Virus record (IMG/VR): IMGVR_UViG_3300021133_000034
Span: 1 to 24,557 of that record
Length of the DNA stretch: 24,557 nt
Strand: one strand, 5' to 3'
Origin: a virus
Lineage: Duplodnaviria > Caudoviricetes
Under the pieces are notes generated by a model that did no database searches, was not told the origin of the DNA, and saw only the letters and a program-made list of their open reading frames with translations. Shown here in pieces: positions 1 through 10,558 of the stretch (the stretch's first letter is position 1; each line of letters opens with the position of its first letter). Made by a program: the position numbers and the translations under genes.

Positions 1-29
1 TACTATACTTTTTGATAAAACAAACAATT

Positions 30-200
30 TTAAAGATATTTGTTTACATAATTTGTAATCCTTAGTTTTTCAATGAGTTCCGCCTCGGATTTCGTCAATG
101 ATTTTGAAACGTTTTTAGCATTTTCTAACGGTTTTCGCCCTGCACCGGGACGCGCACCGCCTGAACCTTGCTTTCGTTTTTTTACTTTCTGTTTTTTCAT
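30..200 (-). CDS. Small basic protein (56 aa) with GGxRxGAGRK motif, putative DNA-binding protein; not in ORF track
   Basis: Manual translation MKKQKVKKRKQGSGGARPGAGRKPLENAKNVSKSLTKSEAELIEKLRITNYVNKYL*; A-rich upstream; same strand as neighbours. Confidence 0.75.
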   Translation of the reverse strand: MKKQKVKKRKQGSGGARPGAGRKPLENAKNVSKSLTKSEAELIEKLRITNYVNKYL

Positions 201-204
201 GTTA

Positions 205-272
205 TTTTTTGTCTTGAGTGAAATTTTGAAAGATGATTTTCGTAGAAAATTAGATTGAAAAATGAAACATAT
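205..272. repeat. 68-bp perfect direct repeat, copy 1 (copy 2 at 1316-1383)
   Basis: TTTTTTGTCTTGAGTGAAATTTTGAAAGATGATTTTCGTAGAAAATTAGATTGAAAAATGAAACATAT occurs identically at both positions (offset 1111). Confidence 0.97.
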
Positions 273-526
273 TATTTGTTATAAATAGCAAGTGTATTTA
301 TTTTTTCGAGTTTCCTCCGGTAATAATCACGTAACCACCTCTCACAGCGGGCGTATTTACGGGCTTGTTTCAAAGCATATCTGTACCGGTTCCAATCCTT
401 GTACATATTATTTTCTATTTTTCGGAGTGTTGTAATCTGCTCTCGTTTCCGTAGGTCTGCTTTTTGCAGTAATTCGAGCGCGTTACTCGCTTTCTCGTGA
501 TTTTCTTTAAGCGTGGTTGTTCTCAT
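272..526 (-). CDS. Hypothetical helical protein, paralog A (paralog of 1383-1622)
   Basis: Shares MRTTxL..H.KA..ALE and KY..C..WL..YYRRKL.KI with 1383-1622. Confidence 0.85.
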   Translation of the reverse strand: MRTTTLKENHEKASNALELLQKADLRKREQITTLRKIENNMYKDWNRYRYALKQARKYARCERWLRDYYRRKLEKINTLAIYNK

Positions 527-538
527 TGGTTATGTATT
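516..538. repeat. 23-bp direct repeat covering leader and start of paralog A (second copy 1612-1634)
   Basis: GTTGTTCTCATTGGTTATGTATT at both positions. Confidence 0.9.
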
Positions 539-543
539 ATGTT

Positions 544-556
544 TTAAAGGGGGTGG
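544..556. repeat. Short near-identical repeat TTAAAGGGG(G)TGG bracketing the RadC gene (second copy 1018-1029)
   Basis: TTAAAGGGGGTGG at 544-556 and TTAAAGGGGTGG at 1018-1029, in otherwise AT-rich spacers. Confidence 0.7.
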
Positions 557-563
557 TGAATAA

Positions 564-1007
564 TTAAATTTCTCCGTTATCAGCGAATGAATAATAACTA
601 TCGGGAGTAATAATAACGTGGTCGAGTAATCTAATTTCTAAGAGTGCCAAAGCCTTTTTAAGTCGGTCTGTTACCGCTTCATCTGCTTTGCTTGGTGTTG
701 TATTGCCTGACGGGTGGTTATGCGCTACAATGACATTTACGGCGCAAGTTTGCAAAGCTACTGTACATATTACACGGGTGTCGGCTATTGCTACGGTCAT
801 GCCGCCCGAACTTACTTTGTAGTAGCCTATTACCTTGTTAGACTGACCGAGACAAACCATTATAAATTCCTCTGTCCACTCAATTTTGCCGGGATCAAAT
901 AATAGTCGCAGTACGTCTGCTGCGTCCTGGCTCTTGTTTATCTTTTTCAGTTCAGATTTCAATGCGCCTTTGAATTTGACACTTATTTCTATTTCGGGGA
1001 TTTTCAT
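564..1007 (-). CDS. radC: RadC-family JAB/MPN domain protein
   Basis: JAMM motif HNHPSG...PSxAD, upstream catalytic Glu (TEEFIMV), and the LLDHVII..SYYSFAD C-terminus typical of RadC. Confidence 0.93.
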   Translation of the reverse strand: MKIPEIEISVKFKGALKSELKKINKSQDAADVLRLLFDPGKIEWTEEFIMVCLGQSNKVIGYYKVSSGGMTVAIADTRVICTVALQTCAVNVIVAHNHPSGNTTPSKADEAVTDRLKKALALLEIRLLDHVIITPDSYYSFADNGEI

Positions 1008-1038
1008 AATGTGGTTGTTAAAGGGGTGGGACTAATGA

Positions 1039-1308
1039 TTAATTTATTGGATCAATATAGGCGGTTACTGCATTAATAGTCAGGTAGTCAAGTAGCCGAA
1101 TGTCTTTTAATGCTTCCTGTAATTCGGTTGAGTTTCCAAAATACATTTGCGCACGTTCTCTGAGAAATGCGCGGGCTTCCTTTTTTGTTTCAAATTTGGC
1201 GATACCTGAATAACTGCCATTGCCATTGTTGTTACATCCTATTCCAAAATGCCGGAGGCTATTATATTGATAAGATGTCGTTGCGGTTGCTGTGATTGCT
1301 ACTTTCAT
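1039..1308 (-). CDS. Hypothetical protein (89 aa; start reassigned to ATG at 1308)
   Basis: MKVAITATAT... starts just downstream of the 68-bp repeat with an A-rich context. The longer track ORF reads through the repeat and overlaps paralog B. Confidence 0.75.
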   Translation of the reverse strand: MKVAITATATTSYQYNSLRHFGIGCNNNGNGSYSGIAKFETKKEARAFLRERAQMYFGNSTELQEALKDIRLLDYLTINAVTAYIDPIN

Positions 1309-1315
1309 AAAAATG

Positions 1316-1383
1316 TTTTTTGTCTTGAGTGAAATTTTGAAAGATGATTTTCGTAGAAAATTAGATTGAAAAATGAAACATAT
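1316..1383. repeat. 68-bp perfect direct repeat, copy 2
   Basis: Identical to 205-272; directly follows the stop of paralog B. Confidence 0.97.
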
Positions 1384-1622
1384 CAGGCTAATAGTGCCAT
1401 GCGGGTAATCTTGTCCAATTTCCGGCGATAATAACATTCCAGCCATATCCCACAGGCAATGTATTTATCTATCTTCTTTTGCTCCCAAATTCGCACATGG
1501 TCGAATATTAGCGGCTCGGCAATGTTGGTGCGGGCGTATTCAATCCTTTTGTATGCCGTCTCTATCATTTCGAGGGCGGCAAGGGCTTTGTTATGTTCTG
1601 CCTGTAAAATAGTTGTTCTCAT
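1383..1622 (-). CDS. Hypothetical helical protein, paralog B
   Basis: Roughly one third identical to 272-526 by eye, with identity concentrated at both ends. Confidence 0.85.
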   Translation of the reverse strand: MRTTILQAEHNKALAALEMIETAYKRIEYARTNIAEPLIFDHVRIWEQKKIDKYIACGIWLECYYRRKLDKITRMALLA

Positions 1623-1642
1623 TGGTTATGTATTTTAATTGG

Positions 1643-2110
1643 TTAAAAAAGTAGTTGTATTACTCCTGCATTTCTATTTGCAAATGTCCTTCTTAATAGT
1701 TCTGTTACTCCTTTGGCCGTCTGGGCGGTTGGTTCGGCGACCTTTGCGCTCTTACCTTTAAAAGTGTAGGGCTTTTCAAAAGTACCGATACCCATATCAA
1801 CGTAAAAGCCAACATGGAAATAGTCGCTTTGTCTGTCTGACTTGTCGAAGTTGCCGGCATTGATAATAGCGAACATCTTTAGAAGTGCCTCGCGTTGTTC
1901 GCCCTGGTAGCTATTTGATATGTAGTAATGATTGATCGCCTTGTATTTTTCACCGTTTAAAGCCTCGGTGAAATCAACATCTATGCTCTCAATAATATCA
2001 ACGCAGATAGATGAATGATGTCTTTTTGTTACGCTCAATTTCCAACCTGGGAAAGCCTTTTTAAGGTTAGCGCGAATCTCGGCGGCGTGTTCTGTGCTCA
2101 TGTAAGCCAT
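1643..2110 (-). CDS. LPD29-like (large polyvalent protein-associated domain) phage early protein
   Basis: Motifs A.EIR..LKK.FPG.K.SV..RHHSSI.V and SD.QSDYFHVGFY recalled from the LPD29 family and related small phage proteins. Confidence 0.7.
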   Translation of the reverse strand: MAYMSTEHAAEIRANLKKAFPGWKLSVTKRHHSSICVDIIESIDVDFTEALNGEKYKAINHYYISNSYQGEQREALLKMFAIINAGNFDKSDRQSDYFHVGFYVDMGIGTFEKPYTFKGKSAKVAEPTAQTAKGVTELLRRTFANRNAGVIQLLF

Positions 2111-2161
2111 AATATTTAATTTTTATAAGAGTGATTAAAATGAAAATTAAAGGTGATTTAA

Positions 2162-2317
2162 TTAGTTTTTTACTTCTATTACACTTATCATTTGAGACGG
2201 GGGAACAACAATTATTGTACGTTCGTCTAACAGTTGAAATGTGTTAAACTGGTCTGTGGATGTGGCGTAAAAACCTGCTTGAGAAAAAGTAGTCTTCACG
2301 AGATATATTGTTTTCAT
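2162..2317 (-). CDS. Small hypothetical protein (51 aa); not in ORF track
   Basis: Manual translation MKTIYLVKTTFSQAGFYATSTDQFNTFQLLDERTIIVVPPSQMISVIEVKN*; preceded by AAACTAAAATG; fills a gap in the operon. Confidence 0.55.
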   Translation of the reverse strand: MKTIYLVKTTFSQAGFYATSTDQFNTFQLLDERTIIVVPPSQMISVIEVKN

Positions 2318-2332
2318 TTTAGTTTGATTTTT

Positions 2333-2354
2333 AAAAGAGCTTCATTGCCCTTTT
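2333..2354 (-). terminator. Weak stem-loop, possible attenuator or terminator
   Basis: Minus strand AAAAGGGC-AATGAA-GCTCTTTT; the G.U pair forms only on the minus strand; the U tract is short. Confidence 0.3.
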
Positions 2355-2393
2355 GTTGCACATGTTTTGAATTTTTGTAAGTCAATCATAAAA

Positions 2394-2612
2394 TTATACG
2401 TAATATGCTGTATATAAACTAAAACTACTTCTACTTATTGATGCGTCTTTTTCGCCATTTTTGAAATATATAATCCCATCATCGTATCCACGTTTTTGCA
2501 TCCCGGTTTGATAACGCTTATATCCTTTCTTTTCAAGGAAATCAATAGCCTTCTGCATCCCGTTTGAATGAACTGTAAAATCTTTCTGTAATACTTTCTT
2601 TGACGTTGCCAT
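2394..2612 (-). CDS. Hypothetical protein
   Basis: 72-aa ORF, A-rich start context, tightly packed in the minus-strand cluster. Confidence 0.75.
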   Translation of the reverse strand: MATSKKVLQKDFTVHSNGMQKAIDFLEKKGYKRYQTGMQKRGYDDGIIYFKNGEKDASISRSSFSLYTAYYV

Positions 2613-2628
2613 GTTGTTTGGTTTTTAT

Positions 2629-2931
2629 TTAGTTAAGAATATTGGTTAATTTTTCTACAAATTCTTCATCCATTATTGAAGTGGCATATTCGGTAACTAT
2701 CACCATTTCTTCATTAGTAATAAATAGCTTGCGGGTGATTGCATCTAATGTTTGGAAAAGTGCGCTGTCTTTCTGTGGTGTTTCAAGTTCAAACATCAAC
2801 TGAACTTTGATAGCCATGATAGCGTTAAAGCCGTTGTTTAATTGTTTCTGCGTAATGCTCATGCGGTTGTTAATAAACTTTATCTTAGATAATGTTGCTG
2901 TGAGTGCGTTTACGTTGATTGTGTTTTTCAT
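2629..2931 (-). CDS. Hypothetical protein, first gene of the leftward operon
   Basis: 100-aa ORF starting about 20 nt downstream of a leftward promoter. Confidence 0.75.
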   Translation of the reverse strand: MKNTINVNALTATLSKIKFINNRMSITQKQLNNGFNAIMAIKVQLMFELETPQKDSALFQTLDAITRKLFITNEEMVIVTEYATSIMDEEFVEKLTNILN

Positions 2932-2952
2932 TTCTTTATCGTTTTGATGATG

Positions 2953-2985
2953 TAAAGATACGTTTATTCTTTTTTGATTTCCAAA
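2953..2985 (-). promoter_or_regulatory. Leftward Bacteroidota-type primary-sigma promoter
   Basis: Minus strand TTTG-N21-TATCTTTA, one mismatch to the -33 TTTG / -7 TAnnTTTG consensus. Confidence 0.7.
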
Positions 2986-3073
2986 TCTTTTTCAAAAATA
3001 AATCAAAAATAGGCTGAAAGCCTTTATAGTAAGGCATAGAAATATTTTTGTAATTCGATGTTTTATAAAAAAA

Positions 3074-3105
3074 TAGGCTCTTTCGCGAAACATTCACTAC
3101 CTTGC
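3074..3105 (+). promoter_or_regulatory. Possible rightward promoter just upstream of the structured RNA
   Basis: TAGG-N20-TACCTTGC, a degenerate match to TTTG/TAnnTTTG, ending 5 nt before the GC-rich structured segment. Confidence 0.35.
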
Positions 3106-3110
3106 ATCCG

Positions 3111-3327
3111 CGGGGCGTGACTGATGGGCGGACAGGGTAAACACCTGCGATGTGTTGCGCCAACAAGCGTAACGCTATGAAATAAACAATAATAATGGTT
3201 GCCCGAATGCCAATAACGATAATACATTTTGCTCTTTTTGCACAAAAAAATCAGTACGATATCCATACATTTCCGAGTATTCGGTGCACTGGATATTAAC
3301 GGTTTGGTGAGATTCCGTATACCCCGA
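3111..3327 (+). ncRNA. Candidate structured RNA with tRNA-like termini
   Basis: 5' CGGGGCG can pair with 3' TACCCCG+A; D-arm-like CTG-ATGGGCGGA-CAG; T-arm-like GG-TGAGATT-CC; several internal hairpins; no convincing ORF. Confidence 0.35.
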
Positions 3328-3347
3328 TAGGGGAGATTGAGATATAT

Positions 3348-3378
3348 TTTGTCGGAATCGAAAAAGATTCTATATTTG
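3348..3378 (+). promoter_or_regulatory. Rightward Bacteroidota-type promoter for the packaging operon
   Basis: TTTG(3348-3351)-N19-TATATTTG(3371-3378), an exact consensus match. Confidence 0.8.
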
Positions 3379-3473
3379 TATCCGATATGCCAACACAGTA
3401 TATATTTACCATTAACGATATTTAGAAAAAGGATATAATACCGCGCGCACGTGCGCATTAAAATACATTCCGA

Positions 3474-3866
3474 ATGCGTAACCCGATTTACACTACTGAA
3501 TTAGCATCTGCACTTTGCGATGAGATAGCGACAACAACTAAAGGATTAAAAGCTATCTGCTCTATGCCAGGTATGCCTGCATTGACAACTGTTGTTAGAT
3601 GGTTGCGATCAAATGATGAATTTAAACAGCTCTACGCACAGGCGAAGGTAATGCAGCAAGAACTCGAGATTGAAGACCTAAAAGATATCTCGGATGGCAG
3701 CACAGATGACGATATGGTTAAGGTGAATAGGGACAAGCTTAAAATCCATGCGCGTATGTGGTTGGCTTCTAAGCTAGCCCCAAAAAAATACGGGGACAAA
3801 TTAGACGTGAATCATGGCGGACAGGCTGATAACCCGATAATTACAGGTATAACATTTAATAAGTAA
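3474..3866 (+). CDS. terS: Terminase small subunit (Sf6 gp1-like)
   Basis: YT.ELA..LCD.IA...L..IC...GMP...TV.RWL HTH region and KL.I.AR.W.ASKLAPKKYGDK motif; upstream of TerL. Confidence 0.9.
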   Translation: MRNPIYTTELASALCDEIATTTKGLKAICSMPGMPALTTVVRWLRSNDEFKQLYAQAKVMQQELEIEDLKDISDGSTDDDMVKVNRDKLKIHARMWLASKLAPKKYGDKLDVNHGGQADNPIITGITFNK

Positions 3867-3870
3867 TAAT

Positions 3871-4161
3871 ATGAAAAATACGCTTATTTCCTGCGTCATT
3901 GCTACCATTATCATATCGGGCTGCATTAAGCCTTCCACAGTTGATAATATAGCTGCTACATCGTGCTATCAATGCACCACATACACGCGCTGCAATATAC
4001 ATACTCCGGGCAATGTTAGTTACTCGGAAATGCTGCTGCAATGTGGCTTAACAGCCTCTGATGTGGCAAAGATAAACACAGATACCGCCTACGACTACGC
4101 CTATTATTATGGGTCAGCAATAGGTGAGGTCCTGGATACCGTATTTGTCAACTGCAAGTAA
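3871..4161 (+). CDS. Putative Cys-rich lipoprotein
   Basis: MKNTLISCVIATIIISGC: basic N-terminus, hydrophobic stretch and lipobox ISG-C; further Cys including CYQC. Confidence 0.7.
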   Translation: MKNTLISCVIATIIISGCIKPSTVDNIAATSCYQCTTYTRCNIHTPGNVSYSEMLLQCGLTASDVAKINTDTAYDYAYYYGSAIGEVLDTVFVNCK

Positions 4162-4219
4162 AATGGCATGCGTGTATGGCAATAAATCATTCCATATGTA
4201 CGAAAAAATAAGAAAAAAC

Positions 4220-4483
4220 ATGGCAAAGCAGATAGCACCCATCACAGTAGCACAGATAAGCGCGTTCAAAAAGGAAAATCCAAATGATAAAACAGATTTC
4301 AGCACCGTAATACCTATCATTACAACGGGTAAGGGGTTGTTTCCTTGCCCCTGCTGCACCGACGGCAAGGTGAGTAACGGGATATTACTTGATGGCTCCG
4401 AATGCCACATATGCGATGGATATGGTTTGGTATCAGACCTGTCTAAGATCGCGAAAACAACCATTTTTAGCAAAAAAAAGTAG
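4220..4483 (+). CDS. Small protein with DnaJ-type zinc-finger motifs (start probably ATG 4220)
   Basis: CPCC.DG...ECHICDGYG; ATG preceded by AGAAAAAAC. Confidence 0.7.
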   Translation: MAKQIAPITVAQISAFKKENPNDKTDFSTVIPIITTGKGLFPCPCCTDGKVSNGILLDGSECHICDGYGLVSDLSKIAKTTIFSKKK

Positions 4484-4525
4484 CCATGCTAATCATGGGT
4501 AAGTGAGCCACTACCCTAAGATACG

Positions 4526-5941
4526 ATGAACATTAGATTTGACTGTCGAGGAAATGAAAAGCAGTTCGAGTGTTTCGAGCAATGGCACGACCAAGAACAT
4601 ATACGAATAGGCTATGGTGGGGGTGTCGGTGGTGCTAAGTCGTTTACCGGTGTCGGCTGCATATTCGGCGATGCGCTCACCTACCCTAATACTTCATATG
4701 CCATTGGCAGGTCTGCGCTCAATGATCTGCGCAAGTACACGCGCCCGTCAATAGATAAGGTTTTCCGCGAAGTTTATCGCCTAAATATAGAATATTACGC
4801 ACCATTCAATGGGCAGGATAACGTGTATAATCTGTACAATGGTTCTAAGGTGTACTTAGTGCCAATGGAAGAAACACCCACCGACATTGCTGATAATTAT
4901 CAGCGTTTCGGGTCAATGGAACTAACCCGGGCATGGGTAGAGGAAGCGGGGGAACATGGTGTTACGGAGAAGGGTGTCAATGCTTTATTTGCCCGCTGCG
5001 GAAGGCAGAATAATGATAAGTATGGTTTACGCGCGAAGGGGCTGATTACATTTAACCCCTCAAAAAACTTTCTGTATCACACCTATTATTTACCATATCG
5101 CAACGGCACTTTACCGCCTCATATGTCGTTCATTATGGCAAGCGCGAAGGATAACAAGTGCCTCCCGCCCAACTACATTCCCGACCTGTTATTAACTATT
5201 TCTGAAAATGAAAAGCAACGATTAATATTCAACAATTGGGAATATGACGATGACCCCGCAACACTATGCGACTATCAGGCTATTCAAGACTTATTCCTTA
5301 ACGAGCATATTCAGCCCACAGGCAAGAGGTATATATCCGCTGACTTAGCTATGCAAGGGCGTGATTTATTCGTGGCTTCATGCTGGGACGGGCTTATTGG
5401 CAGGTTCCCGATTATACAAGGCAAGTCATCAGGCAAGACCATTGAAGATGATTTGCGCGCGCTTATGATACACGAACAAGTCCCTAATAGTAATATAGTA
5501 GCGGATAGTGATGGCATGGGCAACTACTTAGAATCGTACCTACAAGGTATCAAGCCATTTCACGGCAATGCGTCATCTGATAGCGTTGAATTTCGGAACT
5601 ACAAGGACAGGTGTGGTTATAAGTTGGCGGAGTTAATAAATGCTCGCAAAATGCGTATTATATGCAGTCAGGAGGTGAAGGTCGAGATAGCGAAGGAATT
5701 GGGCTATTTGAAGACTGGTTCTATGGTGGCAGATACATCTAAGAAAACTTTGATGAGTAAAAAAGACATCATATCACAACTTGGACATTCACCCAACTAT
5801 TTGGATAATCTAATCATGCGGATGGCATTTGAACTGAACCAGTCTGATGGAAGTTTTGTACTCCGAGAAAATAATATACCTTTGCCTATGAATACGGCAG
5901 AAATTTATTATAAAGGTCGTAAAATCACTAAACTAAACTAA
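4526..5941 (+). CDS. terL: Terminase large subunit
   Basis: Walker A YGGGVGGAKS, Walker B AWVEEA, coupling motif TFNP, RNase H-like nuclease motifs ADLA, DSDGMG, SPNYLD. Confidence 0.95.
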   Translation: MNIRFDCRGNEKQFECFEQWHDQEHIRIGYGGGVGGAKSFTGVGCIFGDALTYPNTSYAIGRSALNDLRKYTRPSIDKVFREVYRLNIEYYAPFNGQDNVYNLYNGSKVYLVPMEETPTDIADNYQRFGSMELTRAWVEEAGEHGVTEKGVNALFARCGRQNNDKYGLRAKGLITFNPSKNFLYHTYYLPYRNGTLPPHMSFIMASAKDNKCLPPNYIPDLLLTISENEKQRLIFNNWEYDDDPATLCDYQAIQDLFLNEHIQPTGKRYISADLAMQGRDLFVASCWDGLIGRFPIIQGKSSGKTIEDDLRALMIHEQVPNSNIVADSDGMGNYLESYLQGIKPFHGNASSDSVEFRNYKDRCGYKLAELINARKMRIICSQEVKVEIAKELGYLKTGSMVADTSKKTLMSKKDIISQLGHSPNYLDNLIMRMAFELNQSDGSFVLRENNIPLPMNTAEIYYKGRKITKLN

Positions 5942-5947
5942 ACATAT

Positions 5948-6496
5948 ATGAATGTTGAAATAACAGAACAGCAGAGGCAGCAGATATTAAACTCCCAACA
6001 GTTTAATGACCTCATGGGCGAATCATTGAAAGGGTTGAAGGTCCCATTCGATAAAATACGTGATGGCTATCTGCGCGGTGTTTTGGACAAAATCATGGAC
6101 AAATGCCCGTTTTATGCACTCAAAATAAACGAGGAAGCATATATAAAGTTATATACGCAGGATTTCAGTTATATGGAGGCTACTATACAACAGAAAGCGA
6201 TTGAATTGCTTTTGTCATCACGCCCATGCGACTTGTTTGATTTGGTTATATTGGATGATATATTGCCCAATGAACAGCATGCAACCGTCCCTGTTAAGGC
6301 GCAATACCTTGAACTGGTCAATGCGATGATGGAACACAACAAAGCCATCAATGATGTGATTGAACCGATACAGGTGGAACACTTCGAAACAGTTTATAAC
6401 CTGTTTGTTTCCGCATCAGAAAAACAGCAAAAGGAACAGATTGAACGCGCAAGCAAGCAAATGTCTTTAGCTGCAACTGCAAAAGCACAGGCATAA
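5948..6496 (+). CDS. Hypothetical protein between TerL and portal
   Basis: 182-aa ORF tightly packed in the operon; no motif recognised. Confidence 0.8.
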   Translation: MNVEITEQQRQQILNSQQFNDLMGESLKGLKVPFDKIRDGYLRGVLDKIMDKCPFYALKINEEAYIKLYTQDFSYMEATIQQKAIELLLSSRPCDLFDLVILDDILPNEQHATVPVKAQYLELVNAMMEHNKAINDVIEPIQVEHFETVYNLFVSASEKQQKEQIERASKQMSLAATAKAQA

Positions 6497-6509
6497 AACA
6501 TACTTTACT

Positions 6510-8459
6510 ATGATATTGGACAATGAACTGATTTACAAGATTTGGGCTACGAACGCTAATAAGCAATCGTTGGATTTCAAAAAGGAAAAGTCTAAACTAT
6601 TAAGACTGCAGGTAACGGGGATCGGTGCTAAAGACCTTATCAAAGAATTGAAGGATATGGAGCGTAAAGGCATACATAGACTTCGAAAGGAAATGGCAAT
6701 TACCAATGTTGATTTGGTGCATCGTGTTTTATTGCCGAGAAAAAAGATATATACCGCTAAAGGCGGCATCGAAGAATATAATCTGAAAACACCCGCACTT
6801 GTTGATGAATTTAAAGAGTTCTTAGCCAATGTTACAGGTTCATCGTCACTAAAGGCGTATATACGCGATGTGCTGCAAAAGCGGTTAGACTATGACCCCG
6901 AAGGTTTGAAATGGGTGGAAGTGAATAAGGACGGTGAACCATACCCATGCTTTAAATCCATCAATTCTGTTTTCGAATGGCATCTAAATGGCCGTAAGCC
7001 TGAATATGTGTTTTTCAGGTTATCGAAGCAGGAGATAAAGTTCTATTTACTCAATGGCGATTTGCCCGATTCAGCGAAGGAATTGGATATTTACCGTGTC
7101 GTTGATGACGCATTTGACAGGCTTATTTCATTCGATGGTGGTGGGGGATCTATTAATATCATTACAGAGGTTGATAATCCGTTTGGGTTCGTACCTGGCG
7201 AAATACTATCCGACATACCAGGTGAGGAGGGTAGCGAGGATTCTGATTCCTTCAATTGCTATATGTCACCATTGCAGCCAATTCACGAACTACTTAGTAA
7301 GTATATGTTTAATCGTTCCGTGTTTGATGTGGCTTATGCCCGTACAGCATATCCAAAGGAATGGATGAACAAATTTAAATGCCCTACCTGTGACGGTCAG
7401 AAGACGGTAGATAGCCAACCATGCCCCGAATGTAATGGGACCGGTGCGTTACCGCATCAGAAAAACAGCGATACCCTTGTTGTCGAGTTCATGAATGACG
7501 TTAATAAGAATGTGCCTGTGCCACCGATGGGGGTAATTGATTCGCCTATTGATGGATTGCAGTTCATGAAGGATAATAATCTGACATTAGAGGAGATGAT
7601 TTATTACACTCTTTACGGCACATTTAAGCCAAGCCCCGGCACATCACAAAAGGTATCGGGCAATCGTGAAGGCCATGGCGGCAACGTGTCAAATACGGCA
7701 TTCGAGGCGAACATGAACGACCAATCTAAACGCGATGTGTTGCGGGACTGGGGTAATTGGACAGCATCCACTATTCAATGGTTTGTTGATATTTTTGGTT
7801 CATTTAAATACGAGGACTCCTATATTTCATGTGCTATCCTTATGGGTGATATGTACATGGAAGAATCCTCCGATGCTACATTTGATAGGTTGGATAAGGC
7901 GCGTATGGGGAATGCCCCGAAATCACAACTTAACTCATTGCAAATTGAATACCTGAATAATAAATATCAGAACAATCCACTCGACTGGTGGAAATATTAT
8001 GTAGCATATATTGCCGAGCCATTTATGTGGGATAAGACATCGGATGTTCTTTCGTGGGATATACCTATGTCCGACAAATTGAAAAAGATTTACTTCGATG
8101 AATGGTTTGATAGCAAATCTGATGATTACTTTGCAGCATTGCCTCGTAATGGCGTTGAGGAGGTCGTAAAAGCAGACTTAGAGGCTTATATGATGGATAG
8201 GTACAAAAAAGGTACTGAAACCGATAATCTGATGTTCACGTCAATGGGTAATAGTCTTTTTGTTGGCGGTAATGCTACCGTAATAAAAGGTAAGGAATTA
8301 AGCCCTACTCATACAGGCAAGACATTCAAGATAAGCAAGATGGATTCCAAATATGTTACCTTTGTTGATGATACGGGTAACACTATTGACGGTTATACGC
8401 GCGGGGATGTAGAAAACAAATCAGGAATCAGAGGTGGCGAACCATTAGGTATAAATTAA
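6510..8459 (+). CDS. Portal protein (with CxxCxG zinc-finger insertion and C-terminal extension)
   Basis: 649 aa, downstream of TerL; portal-like segments (DYDPEG..WVE, NPFGFVP, SPLQPI.EL); internal CPTCDG...CPECNGTG. Confidence 0.8.
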   Translation: MILDNELIYKIWATNANKQSLDFKKEKSKLLRLQVTGIGAKDLIKELKDMERKGIHRLRKEMAITNVDLVHRVLLPRKKIYTAKGGIEEYNLKTPALVDEFKEFLANVTGSSSLKAYIRDVLQKRLDYDPEGLKWVEVNKDGEPYPCFKSINSVFEWHLNGRKPEYVFFRLSKQEIKFYLLNGDLPDSAKELDIYRVVDDAFDRLISFDGGGGSINIITEVDNPFGFVPGEILSDIPGEEGSEDSDSFNCYMSPLQPIHELLSKYMFNRSVFDVAYARTAYPKEWMNKFKCPTCDGQKTVDSQPCPECNGTGALPHQKNSDTLVVEFMNDVNKNVPVPPMGVIDSPIDGLQFMKDNNLTLEEMIYYTLYGTFKPSPGTSQKVSGNREGHGGNVSNTAFEANMNDQSKRDVLRDWGNWTASTIQWFVDIFGSFKYEDSYISCAILMGDMYMEESSDATFDRLDKARMGNAPKSQLNSLQIEYLNNKYQNNPLDWWKYYVAYIAEPFMWDKTSDVLSWDIPMSDKLKKIYFDEWFDSKSDDYFAALPRNGVEEVVKADLEAYMMDRYKKGTETDNLMFTSMGNSLFVGGNATVIKGKELSPTHTGKTFKISKMDSKYVTFVDDTGNTIDGYTRGDVENKSGIRGGEPLGIN

Positions 8460-8473
8460 AAAAACACAATAAT

Positions 8474-8962
8474 ATGGCAAAGATTTATTCACTCAAACCT
8501 GAATCTGTAAAGATTTATAATGACCTAATAGCCGCATACCGTGGCGAGGAGCAATTCTACAAAGCAGCCTCTATTTGGTGCGATAATGAAGGCTATAAAA
8601 TTCCGTTTTTTGTGGACCTCATGCACTATATGCACCACAGGGCGCACAGAATAGAACGCAAATTAACGGATACGGGTACTTTACCTGTATTGCCCGACAT
8701 TAAAGCGATTCAGCCAAAAGCAGCGGGGTTAATATCGCTCATTAACGAAGGATATGAACGCGCGTATAAACTTTGTGAAATGCTGAATGATGACGTGAAG
8801 ATGGCAGGAGATGATGTAAAGACAGTAAACCATCTTTGCAAATATGTTGCGAAGCAGGAGGATATTGTCAACAAGTTTGCCGAAATGCTGAAAAGACTAA
8901 AGGGCGTTGATGAATCAAATCGCGGAATGTTGATGATGCTAATTAAAAAGATATTTTCATAA
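8474..8962 (+). CDS. Ferritin-like protein with degenerate ferroxidase centre
   Basis: Colinear with prokaryotic Ftn over about 160 aa (FY..ASIWCD.EG, A.RI...L.D.G....LP.I, D..T.N.L..YV..Q, L.RLK.V). Confidence 0.75.
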   Translation: MAKIYSLKPESVKIYNDLIAAYRGEEQFYKAASIWCDNEGYKIPFFVDLMHYMHHRAHRIERKLTDTGTLPVLPDIKAIQPKAAGLISLINEGYERAYKLCEMLNDDVKMAGDDVKTVNHLCKYVAKQEDIVNKFAEMLKRLKGVDESNRGMLMMLIKKIFS

Positions 8963-10329: not shown

Positions 10330-10358
10330 GAATAAGAATTTTCATTTGTGGTTAGTTT

Positions 10359-10389
10359 GGGCGGGTGTTTCTACACCTGCCTTTTTTTT
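10359..10389 (+). terminator. Rho-independent terminator
   Basis: GGCGGGTGT-TTCT-ACACCTGCC stem followed by T8. Confidence 0.9.
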
Positions 10390-10404
10390 GTTTTAAAAAT
10401 AAAT

Positions 10405-10432
10405 TTTGCAATTCAAAAAATGTATATCTTTG
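10405..10432 (+). promoter_or_regulatory. Promoter for the capsid/tail operon
   Basis: Exact -7 box TATCTTTG at 10425-10432; TTTG at 10405-10408 with a 16-nt spacer, shorter than consensus. Confidence 0.6.
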
Positions 10433-10477
10433 TATCGCATTTGGCAATCAGCATCCTTCCAAATAGCTTCCTTCCTT

Positions 10478-10558
10478 GCGGTTGTACCGCCTGAAAAGTG
10501 AATGAGTTGTACTCCATGCTTCGGTGATGTTCACCACTCATAGTATCACTTCACTTTT
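10478..10558 (+). promoter_or_regulatory. Structured 5' leader of the capsid gene with three TGT-loop hairpins
   Basis: GCGGT-TGT-ACCGC, GAGT-TGT-ACTC, GGTGA-TGT-TCACC; enclosing stem AAAAGTGAA/TTCACTTTT. Confidence 0.6.

Follow-up and report, generated by a model that had tools for sequence, protein, structure and literature searches.

The window analyzed here, the whole stretch of DNA under study (24,557 nucleotides), is a 24.6-kb phage fragment with a GC content of 40% overall. Its rightward arm begins at 3474 and carries an Sf6-like terS, terL, portal and structural genes, while the leftward arm begins at 2931 and carries small early genes, an LPD29 protein and RadC. On a near-identical contig the left arm is longer and includes probable HTH, recombination, replication-initiator and primase-helicase genes, named from their translations. 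The nearest cultured terL relatives are from Bacteroides, Flavobacterium, Polaribacter and Cellulophaga phages, the best matches to RadC lie on Bacteroidota plasmids, and the region is present in 20 runs, all of which (20/20) are lake or freshwater metagenomes. Therefore, the host of this phage is probably a member of the freshwater Bacteroidota.

Several features elsewhere in the window are recorded for completeness. A ferritin-like domain protein (8474-8962; PF00210, E = 9e-7) is encoded directly 3' of the portal gene. The terL gene (4526-5941) groups with five relatives (P0002-P0006) in a small clade whose Walker A region is altered and which carries short inserts relative to the wider family. 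The early arm contains an exact 68-nt direct repeat (205-272 and 1316-1383), and a sister strain encodes a 485-aa LPD29-type protein (L348:6193-8190) where the window encodes a 155-aa one plus RadC, a difference that makes the early cassette a mosaic. There is also a hint of a repeated promoter-side module at 2343 and 2954. At 10355-10523, a strong terminator (z = -4.8) is followed by a sigma-A-type promoter (10425) and then by a leader, in which two hairpins have the loop TTGTA in common, before a 374-aa structural gene.

The leftward and rightward arms diverge across a 540-nt gap at the early/late junction, and within this gap lies a candidate small structured RNA. Its parts and flanking features are as follows.

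3098..3105, plus strand: promoter box TACCTTGC, an exact match to TAnnTTGY (the flavobacterial SM5 motif), identified from sequence, with motif and spacing from PMC9723704
3110..3333, plus strand: candidate small structured RNA, whole unit, 45% GC, with no Rfam or ARAGORN family
3111..3117, plus strand: 5' G-run, potential partner of 3320-3326 in the terminal helix; both G and A occur at 3112 in the population
3116..3125, plus strand: 5' strand of a long-range helix with 3250-3258, in place of the proposed D-arm (pair probability 0.66-0.75)
3126..3131, plus strand: inner helix strand with 3199-3204 (probability 0.37-0.44); alternative partners 3135-3139 and 3208-3211
3133..3147, plus strand: hairpin CAGG-GTAAACA-CCTG
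3152..3175, plus strand: 9-bp hairpin (3152-3160:3167-3175) with a CAACAA loop, the most certain helix (probability 0.99)
3176..3249, plus strand: A-rich tracts, mostly unpaired (3176-3198 and 3205-3249), overlapped by a weak tmRNA-tag-like scrap (3206-3259)
3195..3299, plus strand: 34-codon ORF with an A-rich start context (a rival reading)
3258..3297, plus strand: stem interrupted by an internal loop and ending in a CCGA-GTAT-TCGG tip; a second fold competes with it
3299..3319, plus strand: T-arm-like hairpin with TGAGA in the loop
3322..3333, plus strand: CCCC-GATA-GGGG hairpin, a competitor of the terminal helix
3348..3378, plus strand: second promoter, sigma-A type, before terS: TTTG (3348-3351), which we take to be its upstream element, 19 nt, then TATATTTG (3371-3378)
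3474..3866, plus strand: terminase small subunit gene terS, Sf6-like, the first late gene

SM5 promoters, as described in PMC9723704, carry the TAnnTTGY box at -12 to -5. At that spacing, TACCTTGC places the predicted +1 at G3110, 5 nt after the box and one base before the start (3111) given in the original prediction; the box is unchanged in relatives. The -7 box of the sigma-A-type promoter likewise follows PMC9723704. By themselves such boxes are not rare (TAnnTTTG has 32 matches in comparison to 30 expected). Both flanking promoters fit Bacteroidota-type boxes and belong to two different promoter classes, in line with the earlier placement of the element between a candidate promoter and the terminase promoter. 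The element between them has a GC content of 45%, compared to 28% and 33% in the flanks. As the phage coding DNA is also ~40% GC, this GC island may be what is left of a gene. The 3' end of the element showed no terminator-like site, and no U-tract follows CCCC-GATA-GGGG.

The letters quoted in the original prediction were all found at their positions, but the structure drawn from them was largely replaced upon folding. The best fold had a free energy of -58.9 kcal/mol, compared to -24.8 kcal/mol (34 kcal/mol higher) for the drawn structure. Two adjacent short hairpins (3153-3165 and 3166-3176) gave way to the single 9-bp hairpin at 0.99 probability, and the bases assigned to a D-arm paired with 3250-3258 instead. 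The proposed stem at 3258-3297 forms at a probability of 0.38, about equal in share to an alternative at 0.54, while the A-rich single-stranded tract persisted as two mostly unpaired segments. Folding was modestly better than in shuffled sequences (z = -1.47, with 17/200 as good; in a second run z = -1.74, 16/300), and the opposite strand folded less well (z = -0.73 compared to -1.74). A single-stranded DNA fold was rejected, as both strands were equal (z = -1.6). Pairing of the two ends had been set in advance against the local CCCC-GATA-GGGG hairpin, and the outcome depended on where the RNA stops: the terminal helix had a probability of 1.00 if it stops at 3327, 0.17 if it extends to 3345 and 0.00 in longer contexts, whereas the local hairpin reached 0.82-0.98 with the 3' flank present. 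Forcing the acceptor and T-loop closing pairs cost ~4 kcal/mol in the trimmed RNA (-55.1 kcal/mol). A tRNA-like end is therefore feasible only after trimming. The 5' part of the element (3125-3148) and the terminator at 10358-10381 have TGGGCGG and ACACCTGC in common at similar spacing, a candidate likeness, and a start-Lys-stop minigene with a poor start context lies inside the element at 3177-3185.

The ends can be drawn, as originally proposed, as a 7-pair acceptor after a 5-7-5 T-arm with the loop TGAGATT, but only with C.A and T.T mismatches. A descriptor fitted afterwards to exactly these features found only this place in the window; when the intergenic stretch was shuffled 2000 times, 0.3% of the shuffles matched it. 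In 30 shuffled windows the same descriptor averaged 0.47 hits per strand, and 1.25 Mb of related phage DNA contained 21 hits (~0.8 per window). The pattern is common per window and is notable here only for being noncoding and for starting at the predicted +1. Like tRNA-Pro, the element has a terminal C-G pair and an A discriminator in the originally proposed register; unlike tRNA-Pro, its predicted fold has neither a D-arm nor an anticodon arm, pair 2 is broken in the common allele, and ARAGORN is negative. The register is weakened both by the uncompensated G3112A and by CCCC-GATA-GGGG winning in context. When the ends were compared with 57 tRNAs, three tRNA-Pro genes agreed at 20/34 letters and one tRNA-Gln at 21/34. 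The ARAGORN search suggested with the original prediction (introns, relaxed) returned nothing by default and nothing with introns at 95, 90 or 85% of threshold; at 80% with introns it called 3133-3327, plus another on the opposite strand. The suggestion of an interrupted tRNA fares poorly, as the element has no U33 and no intron ends, and a group I intron insert was rejected (~150 nt, with no Rfam intron match). Rfam covariance models, including those for Y RNA, 6S, riboswitches and C4, gave 0 matches at E ≤ 5 in positions 1-8000. The tRNA reading is weak, and membership of the tRNA family fails.

Alanyl-tRNA synthetase recognizes tmRNA by a 7-bp acceptor stem with G3.U70 and A73. In the element, pair 3 is G-C, pair 6 is a C.A mismatch and pair 2 is A.C in the common allele, which does not match this stem. 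In line with the earlier statement that G3.U70 and a clean stop-terminated tag are missing, the candidate tag frame reads ANNDNTFCSFCTKK.. to a stop inside the T-loop, with no Ala-stop ending. Neither a GGAC linker nor a TTCRA-loop T-arm is present (the loop is TGAGATT, with a T.T mismatch), and there was no HMM match to the 3' end. In the Rfam search recommended with the original prediction, the only match in 3060-3400 at E ≤ 10 was a tmRNA tag-region scrap (6.2 bits, E = 1.6, cut-off 47), whereas 8/8 real phage permuted tmRNAs tested scored 55 to 70 bits. The scrap is discounted because the same part of the model scored 16.4 bits in genome G001 at a place other than its tmRNA gene. Against tmRNA 3' ends, the 3' end of the element ranked 49 of 6,354 scored positions. 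For the tmRNA 5' motif (GGGG.. GAC after a stem-less D-loop), the 5' end of the element ranked 7 of 9,036 by pairwise score against 19 phage and Bacteroidota tmRNA 5' ends, again with no HMM match and with a biased reference set, which was chosen with a pattern sharing GACAG with the element. The two candidate resume codons ranked 1265 and 1347 of 49,068 on a matrix built from 79 sequences, and the element did not stand out with HMMs built for the two ends and the tag start (63 tmRNAs) or for full-length tmRNA (35 viral). Aligned globally to 29 tmRNAs, it scored better than 150/150 dinucleotide shuffles, mostly owing to the ends that had selected the element; with the ends held fixed, the mean tmRNA score was reached by 27 to 107 of 300 shuffles and the best score by 4 to 12 of 300. 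Likeness of the interior to tmRNA is weak once the ends are fixed.

In outline, the element resembles tmRNAs (RF00023 and RF04321, phage-borne members included) in its G-rich 5' start followed by GACTG and GACAG, its A-rich single strand near position 90 to 130, its T-loop-like hairpin and its C-rich 3' strand, and it resembles phage-borne tmRNAs in having its own promoter in a phage intergenic region. It differs from them in the absence of G3.U70, the GGAC linker, the TTCRA loop (TGAGATT instead) and the Ala-stop tag, and has no P2 joining the ends in tmRNA fashion. By the features tested, the element is neither a tRNA nor a tmRNA and cannot act as either. Of the origins first suggested, a degenerate tmRNA fails as a matter of membership, but the rank of the 5' end leaves room for very degenerate ancestry, and the element may descend from a phage tmRNA gene. 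Genes for tmRNA occur on other phage contigs with Bacteroidota-like signals, and a motif scan recovered 120 viral stretches that include many true tmRNAs. Eight viral contigs of 19 to 70 kb (L193, L202, L209, L215, L223, L224, L265 and L271) carry circularly permuted two-piece tmRNA genes; they belong to small phages with Bacteroidota-like promoter boxes and presumed Bacteroidota hosts. Their coding pieces are very short (~110 to 130 nt), several are followed by a terminator-like hairpin, and they encode tags such as GKVISLNNAPLRAVA; 8/8 tested pass Rfam RF04321 at 55 to 70 bits. Their neighbors vary and include integrase, anti-repressor, endolysin and terS genes.

Variation among strains is limited. 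G3112A occurs in two of three near-identical contigs (L004 and L005, not L313) and in four of seven DNA runs (X2, X3, X19 and X17); X15 and X18 carry G, and X6 has no coverage there. With the partner C of 3112 constant, this allele loses pair 2 of the tRNA-Pro register, while a shifted register with a bulge survives. Within 3113-3397, the only changes are C3133T, which keeps a U.G pair, and A3141G, in a loop, both on one contig at a depth of 2.4 and perhaps errors. The near-identical strains thus hold one pair-keeping change at low depth and one common pair-breaking change. Flanks at 3079-3112 and 3398-3752 are polymorphic. However, 2500-3078 is as invariant as the element and the flanking blocks recombine independently, making the argument from conservation weak.

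In the collections searched, no homologue was found beyond near-identical strains of the same phage population, which are too alike to show covariation in the predicted helices. Searches with blastn in cultured phages and in plasmids found no homologue. Three motif scans of viral contigs (44, 20 and 28 stretches) each returned two known near-identical contigs, the rest being chance. No homologue was recovered by nhmmer and a covariance model of the element over terL/terS loci or over 100 tmRNA/tRNA loci, and in 49 + 49 whole virus records only the near-identical control matched. A terL-clade pattern gave one viral match, a known contig; one match in an Acholeplasmataceae genome was provisionally taken as chance. 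Searching metagenomes for terS yielded five loci with no new homologue. The terL clade has members at 60 to 78% identity, whose upstream DNA lay outside the homologue search. No comparable element stood out in the gaps upstream of terL/terS in 37 related loci. One such relative carries, upstream of its terL and beside a tRNA-Met, a tRNA with intact D- and T-arms and no anticodon arm (L131:1442-1504; 36.7 bits, RF00005), a candidate for a clearer tRNA mimic than the element at 3110-3333, and in another the gap before terL contains the 3' portion of a tRNA, resembling an attachment site (L113:752-1005). The one RNA run with any share of the region gave one 189-nt contig, which covers terS, and no contig across the element, although contigs cannot show absence. 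No description of this RNA was found in the full-text literature searched, subscription papers being outside its scope, and six short words had no match in three of the six supplementary files of PMC10690425, sequence archives being likewise outside scope. Two further candidates were rejected: a 131-aa antisense ORF (3063-3458), in which strain differences change residues and which has no family and no relative but itself, and antisense regulation, for which no target was outstanding (the best duplex, 3205-3250 with the early arm, was reached by 2/40 shuffles).

An alternative hypothesis, unlikely but credible, is that the element acts in cis, as the 5' leader of the late operon, in which a switch or a hairpin-bound phage protein gates read-through into terS. 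In such a switch, CCCC at 3322-3325 would choose between the 5' G-run, GGG at 3135-3137 and GGGG at 3330-3333. That the same C-run has three possible partners, that several folds are near-equal and that no intrinsic terminator separates the element from the packaging operon at whose head it sits would all fit a leader; the downstream promoter that belongs to terS itself, the lack of an identified antiterminator gene and the absence of anything like it upstream of terL/terS in the 37 related loci inspected would not. The lambda pR' 6S leader and the P1 C4 and P4 CI phage RNAs are short structured RNAs whose promoter heads an operon. The element resembles them in these respects, but lacks a U-tract terminator, an outstanding antisense target and an Rfam match, and no antiterminator gene was found. 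It is rather unlikely that the function resides in the DNA itself, with the early/late junction serving as a packaging start, an operator array or an origin. The dyads would then be protein sites and the tRNA-like ends chance, consistent with perfect short dyads separated by 3- to 4-nt spacers, the position between divergent arms adjoining an Sf6-like terS, an 18/21 look-alike of 3116-3136 within terS (3806-3825, E = 2.8) and the chance frequency of the tRNA pattern. The strand asymmetry of folding and a promoter box exactly at the start of the element argue against a DNA element, as does, with contigs being a poor test, the lack of a pile-up of contig ends.

It is likewise unlikely that the element is a decayed remnant of a tmRNA, tRNA or small gene in which nothing specific is left. 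Decay would account for the faint collinear likeness to tmRNA (the 5' end, the tag-region scrap and GTTTGG before the T-loop), the loss of G3.U70, TTC loop and tag stop, the uncompensated G3112A and the tRNA pieces upstream of terL in two relatives. However, the HMMs and resume-codon matrix failed to single out the element, its own model found no match to tmRNAs, and free decay is hard to square with the near invariance of the element and its intact promoter. An improbable reading is that the transcript is a structured mRNA for the 34-aa peptide (3195-3299), with a start opened or hidden by pairing of 3197-3204 in the manner of type I toxin-like mRNAs. Its ATG lies beside a helix, and of the 985 other ATGs in the window only 2.3% have so A-rich a context, but the codon score of the ORF (-0.10) falls below those of eight real genes (0.05 to 0.32), and the peptide has no Pfam family or full membrane segment, is absent from the protein collection and has Atlas matches all below 0.9.

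The best explanation, to which we assign a probability of roughly 0.3, is that the element is a small RNA which the phage makes as a separate transcript and which serves, uncharged, as a decoy for proteins; that it is a transcribed structured RNA of any kind we would put slightly above even. In the proposed mechanism, an RNA of ~220 bases would start at G3110 from its own promoter and end near 3327-3333. It would adopt a four-way fold comprising a short terminal helix, a long arm (3116-3258), an arm at 3258-3297 and the TGAGA-loop arm, displaying two A-rich single strands and a T-loop-like elbow. The RNA could then bind a host RNA-binding protein, uncharged and not as a tRNA or tmRNA; our guess at the partner is SmpB, a tRNA-elbow-reading nuclease or an A-rich RNA binder. 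A stand-alone RNA is suggested by its own promoter class, the separate terS promoter, the GC island and the strand-biased fold; with a sigma-A-type promoter in front of it, terS does not depend on the upstream unit for its transcription. Promoter distance, GC island and near invariance likewise make plausible the discrete structured RNA of the original prediction, even as tRNA and tmRNA membership fails.

In favor of a decoy, we count the exact TAnnTTGY box that puts the +1 one base before the folded region, the near invariance of 3113-3397 compared to polymorphic flanks, the rank of the 5' end against tmRNA 5' ends, the tmRNA genes of other phage contigs and the tRNA without an anticodon arm upstream of a relative's terL. 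Against it, we count the lack of homologues beyond near-identical strains, the borderline fold (16/300), a terminal helix that needs trimming at ~3327 with no U-tract terminator, the removal of a terminal pair by G3112A, a tRNA-end pattern that arises ~0.8 times per window by chance, and a weakly tmRNA-like interior. The decoy reading draws on analogy with the TLD-only tmRNA of mycobacteriophage DS6A, which PMC4131195 and PMC11915505 describe as inhibitory, perhaps by titrating SmpB. The likeness lies in the proposed action, in which an RNA made by the phage, with no functional tag, may titrate a factor of the host; as described there, the DS6A RNA keeps a recognizable tRNA-like domain and little else, whereas in the element the tRNA-like domain is poor and the interior spans 150 nt.

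Both tRNAs and tmRNAs are known from phages, and one TLD-only tmRNA may inhibit that of the host. We speculate, as a long shot, that the element represents a new class of phage RNA derived from tmRNA that has lost alanine identity and the tag stop. Transcribed from its own promoter, trimmed at A3327 and with CCA added, it might imitate the tRNA elbow and in this way sequester SmpB, or a host defense nuclease that cuts tRNA or tmRNA, during infection of Bacteroidota. The element is at present a single-lineage orphan candidate RNA, a member of neither the tRNA nor the tmRNA family. If true, an RNA keeping only the outline of a tmRNA would widen the set of RNA-based tools for counter-defense or translation control, and such outline-only RNAs would be missed by current finders.
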